Below, piece after piece: positions 3,506 to 61,645 of a stretch of DNA of 64,000 bases. How positions within the stretch are numbered: the first letter of the stretch is position 1; every line of letters starts with the position of its first letter. A program made the translations under genes and the position numbers. Origin of the DNA: an uncultured Bacteroidales bacterium. GTDB taxonomy: Bacteria > Bacteroidota > Bacteroidia > Bacteroidales > ML635J-15. The stretch lies in NCBI GenBank assembly GCA_905234755.1, contig CAJOIT010000003.1:479331-543330 (forward strand), given 5' to 3'. The notes under the pieces are model-generated. The model was given only the letters and a program-made list of their open reading frames with translations. It was not told where the DNA came from and searched no databases.

Positions 3506-3540
3506 GACAATATTTTAGGGAAATTTGCGTTAACTAACCA

Positions 3541-4788
3541 ATGAAATTGTCAAAGACAAACATAGTACTGATTGTTGTGCTGTCGGTAATCGTGGCGACG
3601 GGAGTTGCTGTCGCTGTGATTGTGTTTTGCGGTAAGGCAGAGGACGATAGGGTAGAAGTTCCTGTGGAAGAACCAATTGTCGAAACTCGCTTTGGTTTTC
3701 CTGTTGACGATTGGACTATTACCGACGATACAGTTCGCCAAGGCGATTATCTGGGTACTATACTAAATAGGTATGGCGTTCCGATGTCGCAGGTTGACAA
3801 GATTGCACGAATTTCGGATTCAGTTGATTATACGCGGATTGCTGTTGGTCGTCCGTACAGCGTTTTTTCATCGCCGGACGATACCGCCCGAATGGCAAAG
3901 ATTTTTGTTTACGAAAATAGTCCGCTGATGTTCACGGTGTTCGATTTTCGCGATTCGGTGGGTGTGTTCCGCCAATACCACGATGTCGATACTGTGGTTT
4001 GTACGGCATCGGGACGGATAAGCTCGTCGCTGTGGAATGTGCTGGATGCCAAGGGTTACGACTGGGATTTGGCGGTTGGAATGTCGCAGGTGTGGGCGTG
4101 GACGGTGGATTTCTACGCCTTGCAGAAGGACGACTGGTTCAAGATTATTTTTGAGGAATATCGTGTTGGTGGCGAAACGGTTAGGATTGGCAAAGTTCTG
4201 GCTGGAGTTTTTTCGCACAACGGCAAGGAGAGGTGGGCGATACCTTTTGTCAACGATTCGGTTTCTGAATTTTTCGACACCTGCGGGCAAAGTATTCGCA
4301 AGACCTTTATGAAGGCACCGCTGAAGTTCACGCGCATAAGCTCACGATATACAAATTCGCGTATGCATCCCATCCACCATGTTCCTAAGGCGCATCTGGC
4401 GGTTGACTTTTCTGCTCCGATGGGAACGCCTGTGTATGCAGCATCTGATGGTCGTATAACCCTGCGCCAATATGGAAATGGTTCAGGAAATTATGTCAAG
4501 ATTAGGCATAATTCAGTTTATGAGACGGTGTATATGCATTTGTCGAAGTTTGGAAAGTACAATGTGGGCGATTATGTGCATCAGGGCGATGTGATTGGTT
4601 ATGTGGGCAGTACTGGATGGTCAACTGGTCCGCATCTGCACTACGAGGTTCACGAAAACGGCAAGAAGATTAATCCGTTGAACTTTGACCCGCCTACAGC
4701 AGAACCTGTAGATTCGGCAAATATGGAGCGTTTCAATAGGGAAAAGCGTCCGTGGATTGAAAAGATTGGTAAAATTGTATTGGAATAA
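3541..4788 (+). CDS. membrane-anchored LysM-like + M23 family metallopeptidase
   Basis: 415 aa with an N-terminal TM helix. HLAVDF and GSTGWSTGPHLHYEV are M23 signatures. Confidence 0.85.
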   Translation: MKLSKTNIVLIVVLSVIVATGVAVAVIVFCGKAEDDRVEVPVEEPIVETRFGFPVDDWTITDDTVRQGDYLGTILNRYGVPMSQVDKIARISDSVDYTRIAVGRPYSVFSSPDDTARMAKIFVYENSPLMFTVFDFRDSVGVFRQYHDVDTVVCTASGRISSSLWNVLDAKGYDWDLAVGMSQVWAWTVDFYALQKDDWFKIIFEEYRVGGETVRIGKVLAGVFSHNGKERWAIPFVNDSVSEFFDTCGQSIRKTFMKAPLKFTRISSRYTNSRMHPIHHVPKAHLAVDFSAPMGTPVYAASDGRITLRQYGNGSGNYVKIRHNSVYETVYMHLSKFGKYNVGDYVHQGDVIGYVGSTGWSTGPHLHYEVHENGKKINPLNFDPPTAEPVDSANMERFNREKRPWIEKIGKIVLE

Positions 4789-53437: not shown

Positions 53438-54496
53438 ATGGCAGGAAATAAAAAATTACGGGAAGCAAATAAAGCCAAAAAGGATGAGTTCTATACTCAA
53501 CTTGTAGATATTGAAAATGAACTAAAGCATTATAAGGAACATTTCAGAGGAAAAACTGTTTTGTGTAACTGCGACGACCCAAGAGTGAGCAACTTTTTCC
53601 ACTATTTTAGCTACAATTTCGAAAAATTGGGATTAAAAAGGCTTATTACAACCTGTTATAAAAATCAAAATCGCGATTTGTTTAGCAACAATGACAGCGA
53701 AAGGGCAATTTGGCTTGAATATTTTGGTGACCGCAATGGTAATCTTGTTCCAGACCCCGAAGAAATTGGAATAAATTATTTCGATGGTGACGGTGATTTC
53801 CGTTCGCAAGAATGTATTGAATTGCTGAAGCAGGCTGATATTGTGGTGACAAATCCACCATTTTCGTTGTTTAGGGAATATGTGGCGCAGTTGATGAAAT
53901 ACGAAAAAAAGTTTGTGATTGTTGGTCATCAAAATGCTATTACATACAAGGAGATTTTTTCTTTAATAAAAGATAACAAGATATGGTTGGGATATGGATT
54001 TAAAGGTGGAGCAGGACATTTTATAAGTAAATACGAAGATACGGCAACAGCAGGAGATCATCGCGAGGGCATGATTCGCGTATCAGGTGTAAATTGGTTT
54101 ACAAATCTTGAAATAAGTAAAAGGTACGAAGATTTGATTCTTTACAAAACATATAACTCAGAAGAATATCCTAAATTTGACTATTATGATGCAATAAATG
54201 TTGACAAGACTTCCGATATTCCTATGGACTATAATGGTATTATGGGGGTTCCGATAACTTTTCTGGATAAATACAATCCAAATCAGTTTGAAATAATTGA
54301 AGGTTTGAATAGATATACTATTCTTGATGTTGATGGAAGAAATGAATGGGCAAGAAAGGAGCATATACATTTTACTACTATTAATGGAAGTCCAAAATAT
54401 TTTAGAATATTGATCCGTCGTCGTACCCAAAGCATACCATACACAATGGAAGAATCGCAAATGTCGATGGCGGCAGAAAAGGGTGTGGAAATTTAA
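53438..54496 (+). CDS. EcoRI-family N6-adenine DNA methyltransferase
   Basis: The N-terminus AKKDEFYTQ...CNCDDPRVSNFF closely recalls M.EcoRI-type enzymes. NPPF catalytic motif (VVTNPPFS). The ATG at 53438 is preferred. Confidence 0.8.
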   Translation: MAGNKKLREANKAKKDEFYTQLVDIENELKHYKEHFRGKTVLCNCDDPRVSNFFHYFSYNFEKLGLKRLITTCYKNQNRDLFSNNDSERAIWLEYFGDRNGNLVPDPEEIGINYFDGDGDFRSQECIELLKQADIVVTNPPFSLFREYVAQLMKYEKKFVIVGHQNAITYKEIFSLIKDNKIWLGYGFKGGAGHFISKYEDTATAGDHREGMIRVSGVNWFTNLEISKRYEDLILYKTYNSEEYPKFDYYDAINVDKTSDIPMDYNGIMGVPITFLDKYNPNQFEIIEGLNRYTILDVDGRNEWARKEHIHFTTINGSPKYFRILIRRRTQSIPYTMEESQMSMAAEKGVEI

Positions 54497-54527
54497 AATG
54501 GTAAATTATATTATTCCCAAAATTGTA

Positions 54528-54586
54528 AAAATAGGAACAATATGATTAAAAATTAACATTGATAACAATAAAATAGGAACAATATG
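54528..54586 (+). repeat. 17-bp exact direct repeat pair AAAATAGGAACAATATG
   Basis: Copies at 54528-54544 and 54570-54586. The second copy supplies the start codon of the DUF262-HNH gene. Confidence 0.8.
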
Positions 54587-55675
54587 CAAATCGAACTACA
54601 CAAAATTTCAGTCCGCGATCTTACAAACGGCTATACCGACAACGCCGAAAAAGGTGTAACCGCATACGGTGGAAAACTGGATGTCCGTCCGCCGTACCAA
54701 CGCGAATTCGTCTATGGAGAAAAACAGCGCAATGCCGTGATTGATACTCTTATGCAAGGTTTTCCTTTAAATGTAATGTACTGGGCAACCCGCGAGGATG
54801 GCACCTACGAAATCATTGACGGTCAACAGCGTACAATCAGCATTTGCCAGTATGTGAGCGGAGATTTTGCCTTCGACATGCGCTATTTCCACAATTTGGA
54901 GAAAGATGAAAGGGAGCAAATTCTAAACTATGAACTGCAAATCTACATTTGCACTGGCACCGACAGCGAAAAACTAAAGTGGTTCAAGACGATAAACATT
55001 GCAGGCGAGAAACTTACCGACCAGGAACTGCGCAACGCTGTGTATGCTGGTTCGTGGGTTAGCGATGCCAAGCGGTATTTCAGCAAGAATGGTGCGCCAG
55101 CTGCTAAAATCGGCAGTGACTATCTTACAGGTTCTGCAATCCGTCAGGAATACCTTGAGACTGCAATATCTTGGATTTCGGACGGAAACATCGAATCGTA
55201 CATGGCTAATCACCAGCACGATGCAAGCGCAGCTCCGCTGTGGCAGTTTTTCCAGTCGGTGATAACTTGGATAGAAAGCACTTTCCGCCCGACCAAGGAA
55301 CGCAAGAAAATAATGAAGGGCGTAAACTGGGGCGCATTGTACAAGCAATACAAAGATCAAGTATTTGATTTCAAAGAAATTGACGAGGAAGTAAAGCGCT
55401 TGGTACTCGACGATGATGTCACCAAGAAGACTGGCATTTATCCATATATTCTTACTCGCAAGGAGAAGTATTTGTCAATTCGCGCATTTACCGATGCCCA
55501 GAAATTGGCCGCTTACGAACGACAGGGTGGTGTTTGCCCAATTTGCGGAGAGCGTTTCGAACTTTCGCAGATGGAAGCCGACCACATAACTCCGTGGCAC
55601 GATGGCGGTCGCACAGTCGCCGAAAACTGCCAGATGCTTTGTCGTACATGCAATAGGGAGAAAAGCGGAAAATAG
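54584..55675 (+). CDS. DUF262 (ParB-like nuclease/NTPase) + C-terminal HNH endonuclease protein
   Basis: 363 aa with PPYQREFVY and IIDGQQRT (DUF262 DGQQR motif). The C-terminal CPICG...DHITPWHDGG...N..MLCRTCNREK is an HNH module. Confidence 0.8.
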   Translation: MQIELHKISVRDLTNGYTDNAEKGVTAYGGKLDVRPPYQREFVYGEKQRNAVIDTLMQGFPLNVMYWATREDGTYEIIDGQQRTISICQYVSGDFAFDMRYFHNLEKDEREQILNYELQIYICTGTDSEKLKWFKTINIAGEKLTDQELRNAVYAGSWVSDAKRYFSKNGAPAAKIGSDYLTGSAIRQEYLETAISWISDGNIESYMANHQHDASAAPLWQFFQSVITWIESTFRPTKERKKIMKGVNWGALYKQYKDQVFDFKEIDEEVKRLVLDDDVTKKTGIYPYILTRKEKYLSIRAFTDAQKLAAYERQGGVCPICGERFELSQMEADHITPWHDGGRTVAENCQMLCRTCNREKSGK

Positions 55676-55989: not shown

Positions 55990-57285
55990 ATGGCAACAGC
56001 AAGTGAACTGAAAGTAAAAGTAGCAAAGATTTCGACAATTGTTGAATACCTTGAAGATGAGCAGATAAACCAAATTGAAAAGGACATTTTGCTACAAGCG
56101 GTAAGGGAATTGTACTCGGATATATTGGTTACTGACACAGCAAATACAGTCGTAGAAAACACAAAATCAGAAGAAGAACCAGTTAATGAACAACAAGAAG
56201 CTGTTGAGGAACATGTTGATGAAAATGTCGCAGAAACGGTGGCTGCTGCAGTTGTTCCGCCAGTTATTTCTGTTGCGTTTGATGATGGTGAGTTCGATTT
56301 CTCGGATTTGCTGAAGGATAAAACAACGGAAGAAAATGATGAAGTTCAGGAGACAAATGTTGAAACGGAAATTCCAGTAGAAAATGTCGCTACTGAAGAA
56401 ATGCCAGCAGAAGAAGAAATTCCGGTCGAAGAACCAGAACCCGAAGTAGCAAAAGAGGAACCTGCCACAGAATTTGTTCCAGAAGAAATTGACGAGCAGG
56501 AACCTGAAAGTGTAGAAGAATTTGAGGAGCCGGAACCTGAAAATATTGAAGAAGTCGATTCTATAGAGGAATTTGAAGAAGAGGATGATGACAGCGAAGA
56601 ATTGGAGGAGGCAGAACCAGAAACTTCAGAAGTAGTTGAAGAAGAAGTTCAGGAATCGGAATCAAATTTTGAAGAAACTGTTACTGGCGATACTGAAATA
56701 AACTATAGTTTCAACGAGGATACTTTGCAAGATGAACAACCAACTGTTGAGGAAGAAGAACCACAGATAGAAGAACCTGTCGTAGAAGAAACTCCAGTAG
56801 TTGAAGAAGAGCCAGTCGTTGAGGAAAAGCCAATTGTAGATGAACCTGTTGCAGATGAGCCTCAAGTTGCTGCTGAAATGCCAACCATAGAAGAACCTGC
56901 CGTTGAAACTCCGCAGAATGTTGAAGAAAAGCCAGTTGAGCAAGAAAAAGCAGAACCGGCTCACATAACCTTAGGCGAACAACTTGGACAGTCGCGCCAA
57001 TCATCACTGAATGATAAGTTTGCAAGCAACAAGCCTGCAGAAGGCAGTTATGGTTTGAAACCAATTTCCGATATTAAGTCGGCAATCCCTTTGGGTGAAA
57101 GATTCAGATTCACTCGTATGTTGTTCTCTGGCAACGGACCTGCTTTCGATTCAACCGTGGCAAAACTCAATGAAATGTCAAGCATTGAGGAGGCGGACAA
57201 CTATGTACGCACAAACTTCAGCTGGGACATGGATTCTCCTGTTGTCGCCGACTTTATGAATATTGTTCGCAGAAGATATTTGTAA
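55990..57285 (+). CDS. hypothetical protein with a long acidic E/P/V-rich low-complexity core
   Basis: 431 aa. The N- and C-terminal domains look conserved and flank ~270 aa of EEPVVEE-type sequence. TAnnTTTG at 55951-55958. Confidence 0.65.
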   Translation: MATASELKVKVAKISTIVEYLEDEQINQIEKDILLQAVRELYSDILVTDTANTVVENTKSEEEPVNEQQEAVEEHVDENVAETVAAAVVPPVISVAFDDGEFDFSDLLKDKTTEENDEVQETNVETEIPVENVATEEMPAEEEIPVEEPEPEVAKEEPATEFVPEEIDEQEPESVEEFEEPEPENIEEVDSIEEFEEEDDDSEELEEAEPETSEVVEEEVQESESNFEETVTGDTEINYSFNEDTLQDEQPTVEEEEPQIEEPVVEETPVVEEEPVVEEKPIVDEPVADEPQVAAEMPTIEEPAVETPQNVEEKPVEQEKAEPAHITLGEQLGQSRQSSLNDKFASNKPAEGSYGLKPISDIKSAIPLGERFRFTRMLFSGNGPAFDSTVAKLNEMSSIEEADNYVRTNFSWDMDSPVVADFMNIVRRRYL

Positions 57286-57286
57286 G

Positions 57287-58561
57287 ATGTTTCGCTCGGG
57301 TTTGATATTATTGGTTTCGCTTCTTTGCTGCCTTTATTCCTTTGCACAGGATGTCGACAATGCAAGGAAGCATGTGCAGAAACTCACCGCTCCCGAATTT
57401 TATGGGCGCGGTTATTCCTTTGGCGGTTCCGACAAAGCAGCAAAATATATTGCTGATGAGTTTAAGTCGCTGGGTGTAAAACCGTTTGGTAAGTCCTACT
57501 ATCAGGATTTTAACTACGATATGAATACCTTTCCTGCAAAAATGTGGGTTGCCATCGATGGCAAGGAACTGAAGCCCGGCACCGATTTCATACCAGGTCA
57601 GTTTACGCCTACCGTAAAAGCTTCTTACGAATTGTTTTTGCCCGATTCGTTGCTGCTAAACGACACCGTTGCTTTTATGACTCGTTATTTGTTCGAGGAC
57701 TGGTCGAAGAAAATGCTGGTAATCGACTATGCACAGACCGAAAACAAGGAAATCAAGATGTTTTACATCAAGATTTTGTACGGCAATACGCGCTTTGGTG
57801 GCATAATGGAGCTTATTCCCGATGAACTTATGTCATCTGTGGGCGGAAGACAGCAGCAATATCCTGTGGTAAAGGTTAAGCGCGAGGCATTCGACCGTTC
57901 AGCAAAAAGCATTTCTGTGGACATTAGCGCAAAATTGAGGAAAAAATTCGCAGCAAAGAATGTAATCGGATACATCGAAGGCAAAAATCCCGACAAATAT
58001 TATGTCTTTTCGGCTCATTACGACCATATTGGCACAATAGGAAAGGGCGTGTATGTCCCTGGCGCGCAGGATAATGCATCTGGTACTGCTATGGTTCTTG
58101 ACTTGGCTGCCTACTATTCAAAGCATCAACCCGAATGTACAATGGTTTTCATGCTGTTCTTTGGCGAGGAAGCAGGTTTGCTCGGTTCGTCGTACTATGT
58201 TGAACATCCGTTGTTTCCGTTGGAAAAAATACGCATGGGATTTAACCTCGACATGGTTGGCACTGGCGACGAAGGCATAACGATTGTGAATTCGAGCGAA
58301 GAAAATTATGCTGGCGAATGGGAGCTTATCAGCAAGATAAACGATGAAAACAAATATTTCGACCCTGTCAAGCAACGCGGAGCAGCCGCCAACAGTGACC
58401 ATTATTCGTTCAACAGGAAAGATGTTAAGTTTGTATTCATATACACTATGGGACCCGGAACTTTCTACCACAATGTGAAAGACAGGTACGAAACTTTGAC
58501 ATTCACGGGATATGAAAGTTTGTTCGGGCTATTGACTAAATTTGTAGAAAGGTATGAGTAA
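57287..58561 (+). CDS. M28 family peptidase
   Basis: Signal peptide, with HYDH, GAQDNASG and FFGEEAGLLGS motifs. Confidence 0.85.
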   Translation: MFRSGLILLVSLLCCLYSFAQDVDNARKHVQKLTAPEFYGRGYSFGGSDKAAKYIADEFKSLGVKPFGKSYYQDFNYDMNTFPAKMWVAIDGKELKPGTDFIPGQFTPTVKASYELFLPDSLLLNDTVAFMTRYLFEDWSKKMLVIDYAQTENKEIKMFYIKILYGNTRFGGIMELIPDELMSSVGGRQQQYPVVKVKREAFDRSAKSISVDISAKLRKKFAAKNVIGYIEGKNPDKYYVFSAHYDHIGTIGKGVYVPGAQDNASGTAMVLDLAAYYSKHQPECTMVFMLFFGEEAGLLGSSYYVEHPLFPLEKIRMGFNLDMVGTGDEGITIVNSSEENYAGEWELISKINDENKYFDPVKQRGAAANSDHYSFNRKDVKFVFIYTMGPGTFYHNVKDRYETLTFTGYESLFGLLTKFVERYE

Positions 58562-59261
58562 ACTATATTTGGTGCCAACGCCTGTCGGGAATCTTGAGGA
58601 CATGACATTTCGCGCTGTAAATGTGCTGAAATCTGTCGATTGCATTCTCGCCGAGGATACGCGCACATCGGCAGTGCTGATGAAGCACTACGGCATTTCT
58701 ACTCCGCTTGTAAGCCATCACAAGTTCAACGAGCATAAGACTTCGGAAGGCGTTGCCGAAAGGATTCTTGGTGGCGAAAACATTGCGCTCGTTACCGATG
58801 CCGGCACACCTGGAATTTCCGATCCTGGTTTTCTGCTTGTGCGCACCTGCGTAGAAAAGGGCGTGGAGGTGGAATGTCTGCCCGGAGCAACGGCATTTGT
58901 GCCTGCTTTGGTAAACTCGGGTTTGCCATGCGAAAGGTTTACCTTCGAGGGTTTTCTTCCTCAGAAAAAGGGCAAGAACAAGAAGGTGCAGGAACTGGCA
59001 GAAGAGGAGAGAACCATGATTTTCTACGAGTCGCCTTTCCGCTTGGTGAAGACTTTGGAACTTTTTGTCCAGTATTTCGGTGAGGAACGTCAGGCTTGTG
59101 TTTCTCGTGAGATTTCAAAGATTCACGAGGAAAATTTCCGTGGCACTCTGAAGGAATGCATCGAGCATTTTTCGCAGAAGGATGTCAAGGGCGAAATTGT
59201 GATTGTCGTTGAGGGCAAGAACAGAAAGGTTAGGAATGCAGAAAACGAGGAGGATGAATAA
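58554..59261 (+). CDS. rsmI: 16S rRNA (cytidine1402-2'-O)-methyltransferase
   Basis: LYLVPTPVGNLEDMTFRA N-terminus and DAGTPGISDPG motif. Confidence 0.92.
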   Translation: MSKLYLVPTPVGNLEDMTFRAVNVLKSVDCILAEDTRTSAVLMKHYGISTPLVSHHKFNEHKTSEGVAERILGGENIALVTDAGTPGISDPGFLLVRTCVEKGVEVECLPGATAFVPALVNSGLPCERFTFEGFLPQKKGKNKKVQELAEEERTMIFYESPFRLVKTLELFVQYFGEERQACVSREISKIHEENFRGTLKECIEHFSQKDVKGEIVIVVEGKNRKVRNAENEEDE

Positions 59262-59263
59262 TT
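59235..59263 (+). repeat. 29-bp perfect direct repeat, left copy (3' end of rsmI)
   Basis: AATGCAGAAAACGAGGAGGATGAATAATT is identical to 60021-60049. A degenerate extension of 9 nt lies upstream. Confidence 0.9.
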
Positions 59264-59283
59264 TTGCGATTTGGAATATTTTG

Positions 59284-59291
59284 TAACTTTG
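59284..59291 (+). promoter_or_regulatory. TAnnTTTG box (TAACTTTG) of the MNT-HEPN cassette
   Basis: 20 nt upstream of the ATG at 59311, just inside the left 29-bp repeat. Confidence 0.5.
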
Positions 59292-59310
59292 CAAAGTAAT
59301 ACATTATATT

Positions 59311-59625
59311 ATGAAAAACATTTTGGCTGATATAAGGCAACTTGCGTCAAAGGTTATTCCGACAGGCAGTTCTGCTTTGCTATATGGTTCGCGAGCACGA
59401 GGTTCGGCGCACTCGCATTCCGATTGGGATATTTTGTTGATTCTTGACAAAGATTCGCTTACGCAATCGGACTATGATTCAATAAGTTATCCGTTTGTCT
59501 TGTTGGGTTGCGAATTAGGAGAAGAAATCAATCCGATAATGTACACCGAAAAAGAATGGAAGTCGTATGAGGCTACACCATTTTATGAAAATGTAAAACG
59601 AGATGCAATTAATTTATTGTCATGA
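59311..59625 (+). CDS. nucleotidyltransferase (MNT-type antitoxin-like)
   Basis: 104 aa with LYGSRARGSAHSHSDWDILL (GSxxRG...DxD). TAnnTTTG at 59284-59291. Confidence 0.8.
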   Translation: MKNILADIRQLASKVIPTGSSALLYGSRARGSAHSHSDWDILLILDKDSLTQSDYDSISYPFVLLGCELGEEINPIMYTEKEWKSYEATPFYENVKRDAINLLS

Positions 59626-60047
59626 ATCAAGAAGAAAAAAGATTATTGGTTAAGCGACAAGTTGAAAAGGCATATCATTTTATGAACCAAGCAGATGAAA
59701 TGATCAGTTTGGGACATACGGATTTGGCTGTAAACCGTTTGTATTATGCCTGTTTCCATATAGTACAAGCGTTATTCCTTCAATCTGGAATATCGGTTCG
59801 CACTCATTCAGGAATAATTACCCAGTTTAGTCAGCATTTCGTGAAAACAGGTATGGTGCCTATTGAAAAAGGCAGTTTGTTGGCACGATTATTTCAATTA
59901 AGACAAAAAGCTGACTATAATTGTGCATACGACATTTCTGATGAAGAAGCAAAGTCTTTAATTGCTCCTGTTCATCTTTTTATTGCCGAAATATCAAAAA
60001 TGATAGATAATAAAGTGATAAATGCAGAAAACGAGGAGGATGAATAA
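59622..60047 (+). CDS. HEPN domain protein (MNT partner)
   Basis: 141 aa, all-helical. ATGA overlap with MNT. The last 8 aa (NAENEEDE) are identical to the rsmI C-terminus. Confidence 0.75.
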   Translation: MNQEEKRLLVKRQVEKAYHFMNQADEMISLGHTDLAVNRLYYACFHIVQALFLQSGISVRTHSGIITQFSQHFVKTGMVPIEKGSLLARLFQLRQKADYNCAYDISDEEAKSLIAPVHLFIAEISKMIDNKVINAENEEDE

Positions 60048-60049
60048 TT
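60021..60049 (+). repeat. 29-bp perfect direct repeat, right copy (3' end of the HEPN gene)
   Basis: Identical to 59235-59263. It is followed immediately by the ATG of the next gene. Confidence 0.9.
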
Positions 60050-60805
60050 ATGAAAAGATTAGTTGCATACATAATTGTTTTATTGGTATCGGCACATTGC
60101 TTTGCGCAAAATTCAAATGGTATATCTACATCCGACAAGGAAATCGGTGGCATAAAGTTCAGAACTTACAGTTACGAGTTTTCGAGCAATGAATTTTCAA
60201 AGAACATTTCATTTACATTGCCTTTGTCCAATGATCCCAAAATGCTGTTAATCATCGAAACCTTGTTGCACGGCGAATACGATGGTGAGACGATAGGACA
60301 GGAGATGGCAGAGGAGTATTCGTCGTACTTGGCAGAAAAAGCTGCCGATACGGCCAAAAAGGATGATTATTACGAAACCGTTTGGAAGATTGTCCCTGTG
60401 TTTGTAGGTGGCGGATATGTGGCGTTCATATCGTCGTTTTCTCAAAAGTTTGCAAGTGATATACCTGCACCAATGTGGGGCGATGTTGGTTCTGTTTACG
60501 AACTTTCGACAGGAAAGCGAATAACTGAGGAAGATGTATTCGGCAATAATGCTGACCAAAACAAAGCTGTCGCCCAAAAGTTGTATGCCGAGATGAAGAA
60601 AAAAGCAAGTGTAGAAAATACCGAAGATGCAGTTTTGTTCAATGGCAACTTCTATTTCACAAATAAGGAATTGGTATTCATGTATGGTTCGTTCGAAATG
60701 TATCATACTTCGGGAGTAACAAAGTTGTCGCTTCCGAAGAAAAGCATGAAACCTTACCTGAATGTTGACGGACCGTTGTACAAGTATTGGTTCGGAGAGA
60801 AATAA
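60050..60805 (+). CDS. DUF3298/DUF4163-like (RsiV-like) secreted protein, paralog 1
   Basis: Signal peptide. C-terminus NGNFYFTNKELVFMY...LSLPKK..KPYLNVDGPLYKYWF. Confidence 0.6.
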   Translation: MKRLVAYIIVLLVSAHCFAQNSNGISTSDKEIGGIKFRTYSYEFSSNEFSKNISFTLPLSNDPKMLLIIETLLHGEYDGETIGQEMAEEYSSYLAEKAADTAKKDDYYETVWKIVPVFVGGGYVAFISSFSQKFASDIPAPMWGDVGSVYELSTGKRITEEDVFGNNADQNKAVAQKLYAEMKKKASVENTEDAVLFNGNFYFTNKELVFMYGSFEMYHTSGVTKLSLPKKSMKPYLNVDGPLYKYWFGEK

Positions 60806-60820
60806 TAAATATTGTGTAAT

Positions 60821-61645
60821 ATGAAAAGAATAGTTGTATATATCATAGTTTTACTGCTGACGGTACAATGCTTCGCGCAGGAGTCGTCGCAGAGCAAAAA
60901 TCTTATAGTTACCGATACTGTAGTGTATGACGCTAAGTGTAGATTGTACAGTTTTGAATTTGAATCGGCAGAATTTTCGAAAAAGGTTTATTTCCTTTTG
61001 CCATTGATTGAAGACACTGTTGTTCGGCAAATAATATGGGACAAAATGATTGGAAGTCGGTACGACAGCAAGATGCTCGAACTGGAATTACTGGAAGAAA
61101 TAAACATGTATATGGACCGTGTTGCCAGCAATCCAGAACTTATTGATGCAGAGAAAATGGAAGAGCGGTTCTCCGATATTGAATATTATGAGTCGTCGTG
61201 GATGGTTACGCCAGCGTTTGTAAGCGACGAATACATCGCGTTAACTAATTATTTTTCGGAGTTTAATGGTGGCGCAATTCATCATCAGTGGGGCGAAGTG
61301 GCTTATGTTTTCAGTCTTTCGACAGGAAAGCAAATATCGGAGGATGATGTGCTAGACAATATTGATACACATAGATATTTGGTAGCTAACAAGTTGTATG
61401 AGTTGTTGCAGAAAAATCTCGGTTATGATTCCGATGAGTTATTTGTTGACAATGTAATGCAGATGTTGAACGGTAACTTTTATTTTACCGAGAAGGAACT
61501 GATATATATGTATGAGCCGTACGAGGTCGCGTGCTATGCGGCAGGTGAGCCAACGTTGTCTTTGCCAAAGAAATGGTTAAAGCCTTATCTAAATGTTGAT
61601 GGCCCATTGTATAAATATTGGTTTGGAGATAAGAAAACTAGATAA
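60821..61645 (+). CDS. DUF3298/DUF4163-like secreted protein, paralog 2
   Basis: Signal peptide, same architecture. C-terminus NGNFYFTEKELIYMYEPYEVACYAAGEPTLSLPKKWLKPYLNVDGPLYKYWF. Confidence 0.6.
   Translation: MKRIVVYIIVLLLTVQCFAQESSQSKNLIVTDTVVYDAKCRLYSFEFESAEFSKKVYFLLPLIEDTVVRQIIWDKMIGSRYDSKMLELELLEEINMYMDRVASNPELIDAEKMEERFSDIEYYESSWMVTPAFVSDEYIALTNYFSEFNGGAIHHQWGEVAYVFSLSTGKQISEDDVLDNIDTHRYLVANKLYELLQKNLGYDSDELFVDNVMQMLNGNFYFTEKELIYMYEPYEVACYAAGEPTLSLPKKWLKPYLNVDGPLYKYWFGDKKTR

Follow-up and report, generated by a model that had tools for sequence, protein, structure and literature searches.

The stop codon of rsmI in an uncultured rumen Bacteroidales bacterium is the site of a small two-gene cassette flanked by two copies of the rsmI 3' end. 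We call the whole 64-kb stretch of DNA that was analysed the window, alleles with the cassette filled and alleles without it empty. The features of the locus, in window coordinates, are:

58554..59261, + strand: rsmI (16S rRNA cytidine-1402 2'-O-methyltransferase), 235 residues, tail ...KVRNAENEEDE; Pfam TP_methylase, 1e-29
59226..59234, + strand: left AAGGTTAGG, codons K V R, putative upstream part of an original target duplication of ~38 bp; aligns to AARGTRATA, found at the right end of every filled allele
59235..59263, + strand: left 29-bp direct repeat copy, comprising rsmI codons N A E N E E D E, the stop and TT
59264..59310, + strand: cassette leader with a Bacteroidetes-type -7 box, TAACTTTG, at 59285-59292, from reading of the sequence
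59311..59625, + strand: MNT (minimal nucleotidyltransferase), 104 residues, predicted antitoxin; Pfam Polbeta/NTP_transf_2, PADLOC PDC-S09, 1.7e-15
59622..60047, + strand: HEPN gene, 141 residues, predicted toxin; Pfam HEPN, 3e-16
60012..60020, + strand: AAAGTGATA, the old, decayed part of the right rsmI-tail copy with an AGG->ATA signature, common to all filled alleles
60021..60049, + strand: right 29-bp direct repeat copy, identical to the sole copy of empty-site relatives
60021..60079, + strand: empty-allele-like patch of ~45-60 nt (the 29-mer joined without a spacer to the opening 16-30 nt of the following gene), its right limit resting on 4-6 SNPs
60050..60805, + strand: DUF3298-like gene with signal peptide, first of a tandem paralogue array; Pfam DUF3298
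60812-61645, 61645-62565 and 62570-63427: further DUF3298-like paralogues with signal peptides

The cassette and the repeated rsmI end

The repeat is the 29-mer AATGCAGAAAACGAGGAGGATGAATAATT, which occurs exactly twice when the 64-kb window is scanned, on the + strand in both cases, at 59235-59263 and at 60021-60049. Allowing up to three mismatches revealed no other match in the window, and none appeared in shuffled sequence (0/100 shuffles; chance expectation 0), in agreement with the perfect duplication described in the original prediction. The right copy forms the last eight codons, the stop and two further nucleotides of the 141-residue HEPN open reading frame. The weaker similarity that had been reported upstream was likewise found: the nine nucleotides 5' of the repeat, AAGGTTAGG on the left and AAAGTGATA on the right, match at 5/9 positions, and the RsmI and HEPN proteins both end in KV(R/I)NAENEEDE. 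The right copy runs straight into the next gene, as had been stated, with the ATG of the DUF3298-like gene read at position 60050 and a junction of the form TAATTATG. The acidic tail family comprises more than 100 RsmI orthologues at 94-100% identity, and by this comparison the tail is native to RsmI. The database version of RsmI has 230 residues, called from a later TTG start, and an exact-protein search with it returned only the window's own organism.

Between the repeat copies lie 757 bp (59264-60020), which by open reading frames and Pfam indeed hold only a promoter box and the overlapping MNT and HEPN genes. The TAACTTTG box is presumably a promoter, as matched to the published Bacteroides consensus, and a leader block containing TTTTGTAAYTTTGCAAAG is conserved in L002, L108, L110, L105 and L003. 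The two genes overlap by 4 nt (ATGA), and a regular expression places the MNT motif GSx10DxD at residues 26-40. The HEPN protein belongs to the PF05168/UPF0332 family, its closest solved structures being 9xbd, 9xbc and AF0298. The Rx4-6H motif is absent from the canonical C-terminal-helix site, where the conserved site reads R94-QKAD-Y99 and solved PF05168 relatives read RNRSDY; regular-expression matches to R..H occur only at residues 12 and 39, off the canonical position. Because RQKADY stands where the canonical motif would usually be, an RNase-toxin function of HEPN is a prediction only, and the MNT-HEPN pair is predicted to be a toxin-antitoxin or defence module. HEPN homologues are mostly of 129-133 residues, and a shorter HEPN (P0002 type) ends ~30 nt earlier, with its stop aligned to the ATA at 60018-60020. 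This difference of ~30 nt marks the rsmI-tail segment as an add-on. On alignment, the native HEPN is a protein of ~130 residues whose last ~10 residues in the window are read from the copied rsmI tail.

The arrangement recurs outside the window. An independent assembly (L001, ERZ1667847) is 100% identical across 57301-61303, the same HEPN protein (P0241) is recorded on four contigs of up to 1.1 Mb, and a variant HEPN (P0246) has the same structure on a Logan contig. An assembly artefact or strain-mixture chimera might be suspected, given that the comparison data are mostly metagenome assemblies and that one contig with the cassette, L108, shows an odd join. The recurrence in independent assemblies makes this explanation extremely unlikely, and no sufficiently long k-mer is common to filled and empty alleles at the join.

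A presence/absence polymorphism at the rsmI stop

Relatives without the cassette were predicted to carry a single 29-mer at the rsmI stop, and rsmI was predicted to have originally abutted the next gene; both expectations were borne out. In L093-L099, in which RsmI differs at two residues, the cassette is absent, and one exact 29-mer (two in the window and in L001) is followed by the TAATTATG junction. In L109, in which RsmI differs at one residue, a single tail copy leads into a junction of the same type with one base different. Compared with the window, these eight contigs are 95.8-96.2% identical in the upstream flank and ~84% identical downstream. Farther empty alleles (L100-L104 and L013) have one tail copy and a spacer of 11-14 nt. 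The first DUF3298-like gene adjoins rsmI directly in empty-site strains, with synteny in L093-L099, L100, L013 and L003, and a genome scan with RsmI returned, among the matches listed, only L013 (empty) and L014 (with a different downstream gene) as close relatives. These alignments establish the cassette at the rsmI stop as a presence/absence polymorphism.

The space between rsmI and the DUF3298-like gene occurs in several states: empty, occupied by this cassette, occupied by a different and unrelated MNT-HEPN pair, or with extra genes, which include a T9SS-tail gene and an AbiEii-like gene. By comparison of these alleles, the slot is an insertion hotspot. Since the T9SS-tail gene lies between rsmI and the cassette in some strains, the original insert may have been larger, or the events may have been nested.

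No determinant of mobility was recognized. The 757-bp insert contains no recombinase gene, only the MNT and HEPN open reading frames, as the original prediction had it. Reading frames of at least 150 residues between 52 and 64 kb matched DUF3990, an EcoRI methylase, GmrSD/HNH, M28, RsmI and DUF3298, with no match for 55990-57285, and no integrase was found among the nearby scanned frames, within 10 kb in the window. Neither terminal inverted repeats nor a hairpin was detected at the cassette ends, and the 38-mer is unstructured. A transposon, insertion sequence or MITE was rejected on the missing terminal inverted repeats and on the length of the repeat (29-38 bp vs target-site duplications of 2-14 bp), and an integron gene cassette on the lack of an attC hairpin and of a nearby integrase. 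A dif- or att-like core was likewise rejected, the repeat having neither dyad symmetry nor structure. The suggestion that the locus looks like att-site recombination did not hold: to the unstructured repeat and the lack of a recombinase is added the decay of the right copies in sister strains (see below). Searches of IMG/VR, PLSDB plasmids and phage records returned no relatives of the cassette, and a metagenome pattern scan for the HEPN 3' end gave no match.

A search for the cassette at other loci between other duplications had been proposed, and such duplications were seen in part. Long direct repeats flank L116 (119 nt), L149 (52 nt, a duplicated promoter) and L139 (16 nt), and none of these repeats has an Rfam match. 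Most of the ~30 other loci lack such repeats, and flanking repeats were rejected as a general feature of the family.

An old duplication and a chimeric right copy

The perfect repeat, the exact match of the empty site, the sharp fall in identity beyond the 29-mer and the rsmI flank of the window, which is nearest to that of empty strains, would all suit a fresh primary insertion, in which an illegitimate or template-switch event at the rsmI stop itself created the 29-bp duplication in the window's lineage. The sister filled alleles tell against it. In L002, L105/L106 and L108 the same cassette has at its end a decayed rsmI-tail copy with 21-23/29 identical positions (72-79%), followed by a spacer of 6-7 nt that resembles the one in older empty sites. 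The L108 contig also carries a second rsmI fragment, whose downstream sequence matches none of the sequences compared. When aligned to empty-junction alleles, L002, L105 and L108 reach scores of 30-40 at their right ends, a level attained by at most 1 of 500-2000 shuffles, while 30/30 unrelated MNT-HEPN loci scored 20 or less; in L105 the alignment, to the L100 empty junction, starts at AAGGTAA and continues past the stop and the spacer up to the ATG. In L002 and L108 the left and right copies vary together at the Val codon, and all right copies, that of the window included, show the derived change AGG->ATA immediately to the left of the 29-mer. The decayed copies and the old-type spacer of the sisters indicate that the duplication is old and spans ~38 bp, as judged from a small sample of filled alleles of type 1 (four independent ones) and of empty lineages (three), mostly on short metagenome contigs. 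The spacer between P0002-type HEPN and its next gene, GAAATGCAAAAT, was considered as a further rsmI-tail remnant and set aside; its scores lie at the top of the null range, not beyond.

The nine nucleotides left of the window's right copy show both the ATA signature and, for Val, the GTG codon that belong to the old rsmI-tail copy in all other filled alleles, from which it follows that the incoming DNA already held rsmI-tail homology and that the join was made inside it. In addition, the left junction TAATT|TTGCGATT is the same in L002, L108 and L110, barring point differences just inside the cassette, which argues against independent illegitimate events. We therefore regard a fresh insertion as unlikely. 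Of the claim that a precise insertion created the 29-bp duplication, the polymorphism of the cassette at the stop stands, and the simple fresh event does not, in view of the decayed sister copies, the ATA signature and the composition of the right copy. The accompanying statement that about 29-38 bp of target were duplicated or recombined came close to the mark, the original duplication being put at ~38 bp and the perfect 29-mer being a secondary product.

Indeed, the right copy falls into two parts when compared with the left: 4/9 mismatches, then 0/29 (hypergeometric p = 0.0017). At the divergence of the sisters, ~22%, the probability of no mismatch in 29 positions is ~7e-4. The 29-nt block is identical to a present-day empty allele, and the window, like its nearest empties, has no spacer. 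Val is encoded by GTT in the left sequence, as in empties, vs GTG in the right one, as in other filled alleles. By these alignments the right copy is chimeric, an old block of 9 nt being joined to a pristine one of 29 nt, and the perfect 29-mer is best interpreted as the product of a secondary recombination with an empty-site allele, superimposed on an old ~38-bp duplication. The flanks are mosaic as well. The rsmI 3' end of the window is nearest that of the empty L109 (7/245 differences, vs 25/245 for L108), the cassette body is nearest L108 (37/710; Fisher p = 0.01 for the L108 contrast), and the next gene follows L109 for its first 30 nt and L105/L108 thereafter. On both sides of the empty-like patch the nearest alleles are filled ones, L108 and L105.

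We consider it probable that an old target-duplicating insertion of ~38 bp was followed by renewal of the right copy through recombination between filled and empty alleles. The slot would have been filled long ago by an insertion that duplicated the last 11 rsmI codons, the stop and TT. One duplicate still completes rsmI, and the other supplies the end of the HEPN frame and the sequence 5' of the next gene's ATG; no mobility gene need have been involved, a pattern termed insertion with long target duplication. In the sister strains the right copy has decayed and the old spacer of 6-7 nt has been kept. In the window's lineage, by contrast, it would have been renewed between filled and empty alleles of the same species via rsmI-tail homology, in an exchange that put empty-allele sequence in place of the stretch beginning at the AAT codon and ending 16-30 nt into the next gene, and left the perfect 29-bp repeat and the spacer-less TAATTATG junction. 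As to pathway and direction, an empty chromosome may have received the cassette, or a filled one a patch of the empty type; a move of the whole cassette into an empty chromosome would explain the data equally well, given an unsampled empty allele with a window-like downstream gene.

Renewal from within the chromosome is a further alternative, in which the left rsmI tail overwrote the decayed right copy by gene conversion. This accounts for the 29 identical bases and the sharp left boundary, but the left copy is followed by TTGCG..., not ATG, so that both the loss of the spacer and the empty-type bases at nt 1-16 of the next gene are left unexplained. Nor was any allele seen that has a renewed tail and a kept spacer, and we hold gene conversion to be very improbable.

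The window could also represent a recent re-integration of a homology-addressed mobile unit, the cassette with one rsmI-tail copy looping out by way of the direct repeats and re-integrating in Campbell fashion, by host recombination, at empty rsmI tails in other strains. Both exchange points fall inside the repeat of ~35 nt, the left one between the GTT Val codon and the cassette and the right one between the ATA and repeat position 4. Divergence between the window and L108 is lower in the cassette than in rsmI, and the right end of each filled allele best matches a different empty-junction allele. A similar life cycle has been proposed for restriction-modification (RM) modules (PMC2853133). 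However, a single SNP stands behind each boundary, RecA-type recombination works poorly on 29-38 bp, the next gene past nt 30 is of the filled type and unlike the sampled empties, and neither a circle nor a tandem form has been observed, which leaves this alternative doubtful. The placement of the exchange points, the differing best-match empty alleles and the direct repeats at L116, L149 and L139 also underlie a wider and speculative reading, to which we attach a low probability: MNT-HEPN cassettes of this family might be recombinase-free mobile units that insert with long target duplication and then shuttle from strain to strain by the duplicated host sequence, here the rsmI tail.

Relation to known modules and insertion classes

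In its gene content the cassette resembles MNT-HEPN (HepT/MntA, type II/VII) modules: two short overlapping genes, the nucleotidyltransferase preceding HEPN, GSx10DxD in MNT and a scattered, context-independent distribution. The biochemistry of such modules has been done on the DUF86 HepT family. The HEPN protein here differs from HepT in belonging to PF05168/UPF0332, in having RQKADY in place of Rx4-6H and in its foreign 10-residue tail from the rsmI copy. In its architecture the locus recalls CIMEs and Xer-dependent IMEX, in which direct repeats of ~30 bp surround a small element devoid of recombinase and the target gene regains its 3' end from one repeat. Unlike in those elements, the repeat lies inside coding sequence, has no dyad symmetry, recombinase-binding architecture or structure, and is accompanied by no integrase within 10 kb in the window; unlike in a functional att site, the right copies decay freely in sister strains. 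Homology-facilitated illegitimate recombination combines a long homologous anchor with a join in very short homology, and transformation can leave mosaic, discontinuous tracts in which donor and recipient segments alternate. Such an anchor with its short join, and such an alternation of donor and recipient segments, would also describe the surroundings of the rsmI site.

The closest known class that the locus fits, on sequence features, is the recombinase-free insertion with long target duplication described for RM gene complexes (Nobusato et al. 2000; Furuta, Abe & Kobayashi 2010, PMC2853133). As in that class, a small addiction-type module is missing from a close relative, the flanking direct repeats are single-copy at the empty site, the insert is small (757 bp vs a criterion of <20 kb) and has neither transposase nor integrase, and a different module substitutes at the same locus. 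The repeat overlaps the 3' end of the flanking gene, as does the 46-bp repeat at H. influenzae HI0105 (PMC2853133). Published long target duplications range from >30 bp to several hundred (PMC2853133), vs 29 bp for the perfect repeat in the window and ~38 bp with the decayed 9-nt block, near the bottom of that range. The locus departs from the class in its cargo, which is MNT-HEPN and not RM, and in its perfect repeat, which appears to be a renewed old duplication and not the primary product.

The locus offers a checkable case of a toxin-antitoxin module that enters, persists and exchanges at one slot without transposase or integrase, and it would extend the pattern of long target duplication from RM to MNT-HEPN modules, in uncultured rumen Bacteroidales. 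It also suggests that a perfect flanking repeat need not date an insertion, since here it would be the renewed copy of an old duplication. The duplication may persist because the same bases serve the rsmI C-terminus and the upstream context of the next gene, and this dual role could plausibly explain the survival of duplicative insertions alone at the rsmI site. A shuttling life cycle has been proposed but never demonstrated for RM modules (PMC2853133); if true here, shuttling by means of host sequence that the cassette carries as a copy would represent gene mobility in a minimal form.

The repeat, its genes and the empty site

Two exact copies of the 29-mer AATGCAGAAAACGAGGAGGATGAATAATT lie in the window, the left copy at 59235-59263 and the right copy at 60021-60049; no further match was found there at up to three mismatches, and 0/100 shuffles gave one. 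In the 9 nt 5' of each copy, 5/9 positions agree between the two. The right copy is followed directly by the ATG of a DUF3298-like gene, the junction reading TAATTATG.

Features of the window around the repeat
58554-59261: rsmI ORF, 235 aa, Pfam TP_methylase match (RsmI family), ending in the left copy
59285-59292: TAACTTTG box, inside the 47-nt stretch ahead of MNT
59311-59625: MNT (nucleotidyltransferase) gene, 104 aa
59622-60047: HEPN ORF, 141 aa, overlapping MNT by 4 nt and ending in the right copy

Repeat search, ORFs and an independent assembly (L001) identical to the window across 4 kb all agree with the original prediction, whose description of repeat, genes and junction was accurate in every detail. 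The empty site that it anticipated in relatives was also found. Seven contigs (L093-L099) encoding P0124, an RsmI 2 aa from the window's, read ...AAGGTTAGG-AATGCAGAAAACGAGGAGGATGAATAATT-ATGAAAAGATTAGTT..., with a single exact 29-mer through which rsmI adjoins the DUF3298-like gene as TAATTATG. Locus L109 (RsmI P0123, 1 aa different) has the same junction with one base of the 29-mer changed. The more distant L100-L104 and L013, a MAG from water-buffalo rumen, are empty too, with a spacer of 11-14 nt (TAATTTATGACCCAATG or TAATTTTTTTTGACCCAATG) still in place. In empty and filled alleles alike, the rsmI tail, duplicated in the window, sets a GGAGG ~11 nt ahead of the start codon of the next gene (window 60031-60052); the motif may contribute to the context in which translation of that gene begins.

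Origin and age of the duplicated tail

Each of the 120 RsmI orthologues listed (94-100% identity) has a C-terminal tail of the form ...KVRNAE(N/C/S)E(E/D).., and HEPN homologues, mostly 129-133 aa long, cover only ~91-93% of the query. Of the tail-less HEPN types the nearest is P0002 (83% identity; found at L003 and L111-L113), whose stop aligns with ATA at 60018-60020, ~30 nt before the window HEPN stop. The acidic tail is native to RsmI and foreign to HEPN. All proteins in the 90%-identity cluster of the window HEPN share ...KMIDNKVIN and then differ, continuing as AENEEDE, TENDVKE, SDNDEK, DET or DETEDE.

Filled alleles of sister strains
L002: rsmI upstream of MNT, left junction as in the window; right end AATACAGAGAACGACGTGAAGGAATAATT + ATTGTT + ATG, 23/29 identical
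L108: rsmI upstream of MNT, left junction as in the window; right end AATGATGAAACCGAAGATGAATAATAGTT + TTTTGTC + ATG
L105/L106: T9SS-tail (Por_Secre_tail) gene and terminator upstream of MNT; right end AATTCGGATAATGACGAGAAATAATAATT + TATTGTC + ATG

The right ends of L002, L105 and L108 align to empty-junction alleles with scores of 30-40, against scores of at most 20 for 30/30 unrelated MNT-HEPN loci; no more than one of 500-2000 shuffles attains the observed scores. The L105 right end follows the empty junction of L100 through AAGGTAA, stop, spacer and ATG in turn. Every right copy has ATA at the position of the rsmI AGG, and the Val codon of L002 and L108 is GTG in left and right copies. The sister right ends are thus homologous to rsmI-tail-plus-spacer junctions, from which it follows that the duplication is old, ~38 bp long and arose in a spacer-bearing empty site.

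A separate oddity was seen in L108 (ENA ERZ28633456 scaffold_58387, 1148-1270): the DUF3298-like gene breaks off after ~95 nt and another rsmI 3' fragment takes over, which is not identical to the first, corresponds to window 59118-59238 and ends in AGGAATG at the 29-mer's left edge. The sequence beyond it had no match among the loci compared. Either the contig is chimeric or a second rearrangement used the same breakpoint.

Probable renewal of the right copy in the window

The window right copy consists of AAAGTGATA, which has 4/9 mismatches to the left copy and the common ATA signature, followed by 29/29 identical bases. The probability of all four mismatches landing in the 9-nt block is 0.0017, and that of no change in 29 nt, at the sisters' ~22% divergence, is ~7e-4. 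The old spacer is absent, exactly as in the nearest empty relatives. The left Val codon, GTT, is that of the empty L093 and L109, and the right one, GTG, is that of the other filled alleles. Across the 245 nt at the rsmI 3' end, the nearest allele is empty L109 (7 differences) and L108 is distant (25), whereas the cassette body is nearest to L108 (37/710), a contrast with Fisher p = 0.01. In the next gene, nt 1-30 equal L109 and nt 31 onward resemble L105/L108; overall that gene is ~5% from L105 and ~9% from the empties. The flanks of the cassette are therefore mosaic, and the perfect right copy is probably secondary, not the primary insertion product. Conversion from the left copy on the same chromosome leaves two features unexplained, the lost spacer and the bases of empty type within the next gene. 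The most economical explanation is that a filled allele recombined with an empty one, the exchange reaching as far as the rsmI-tail homology allowed.

The slot, its cargo and the class of insertion

The MNT carries a GSx10DxD motif, and the HEPN belongs to PF05168/UPF0332 (closest solved structures 9xbd, 9xbc and AF0298). A toxin-antitoxin role is only predicted, because the conserved HEPN site is RQKADY, not Rx4-6H, and PADLOC returned candidate-system matches only (PDC-S09 and PDC-M05).

The rsmI/DUF3298 slot is a hotspot. At L110:893-1770 (ENA ERZ27257204 k141_6586493; RsmI 3 aa different), left junction and promoter remnant are the same as in the window, homology ends exactly at the MNT ATG (59311), and the slot is occupied by a pair unrelated to the window's, an MNT of 102 aa and a HEPN of 135 aa with the C-terminus ...SEYITEN: one TA pair has been allelically substituted by another. 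The slot holds an AbiEii-like gene in L112 and DUF805 in L009/L010. A T9SS C-terminal-sorting gene lies 3' of rsmI in L003, L105 and L014; with its own terminator it stands between rsmI and MNT at L003:2556-4529 and L105:1-444, and L111 retains only the terminator (2590-2690). An original insert of ~3 kb would account for this, as would repeated hits on the slot.

Downstream, window 60050-63427 holds at least four DUF3298-like paralogues in tandem, which carry signal peptides. From strain to strain they show ~84% nucleotide identity, against ~96% for the upstream housekeeping flank, which suggests diversifying selection or frequent recombination. At 52449-55675, 3-6 kb upstream, DUF3990 (ART-like), EcoRI-type adenine methyltransferase and GmrSD_N/HNH endonuclease genes together resemble a small defence islet, of which empty-site strains L093-L095 also have the GmrSD/HNH gene.

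Related MNT-HEPN cassettes occupy many unrelated contexts, among them PFOR, V-ATPase subunit I, NadA and PheT neighbours. Most members of the family have no flanking repeats; three other loci do. In L116 (JGI Ga0310786_10380639), a 71% identical MNT-HEPN in another context lies between direct repeats of at least 119 nt (285-403 and 1490-1608; 93% identity, 91-nt exact core, spacing 1205 nt), the second running off the contig end; this repeat had no Rfam match and no other copy among the loci compared. In L149 (JGI Ga0247611_10000930), a distant MNT-HEPN cassette of 45% identity lies between 52-nt direct repeats (2594-2645 and 3519-3570; 49/52 identical) that contain a duplicated TAnnTTTG-type promoter. 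One copy drives the cassette; behind the other comes non-coding sequence that is GC-rich, looks structured and has no Rfam match. L139 has a 16-nt flanking repeat.

The window insert encodes no recombinase, its ends show neither inverted repeats nor a hairpin, and no cassette copies were found in phage, plasmid or IMG/VR records. Its anatomy matches "insertion with long target duplication" of RM modules, small addiction-type inserts without mobility genes whose long flanking direct repeats are single-copy at the empty site and at times overlap a gene's 3' end (PMC2853133). The perfect repeat, at 29 bp, is slightly below the 30-bp cut-off of that study, and reaches 38 bp with the decayed block. 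Allelic substitution at one locus has likewise been reported for RM modules (PMC2853133). The observed cassette and repeat are genuine, but the perfect 29-mer is better read as secondary, given the ATA signature, lost spacer and mosaic flanks.

The mechanism is best described as an old recombinase-free insertion that would have made a ~38-bp target duplication, followed by recent renewal of the right copy through allelic recombination, which may have brought the cassette to an empty chromosome or, conversely, put a patch of empty type into a filled one. Because the bases coding for the rsmI C-terminus, GGAGG included, are also those that directly precede the next gene's ATG, only insertions that duplicate them would spare both genes. 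The locus is a well-resolved natural example and a lead on how MNT-HEPN cassettes move.
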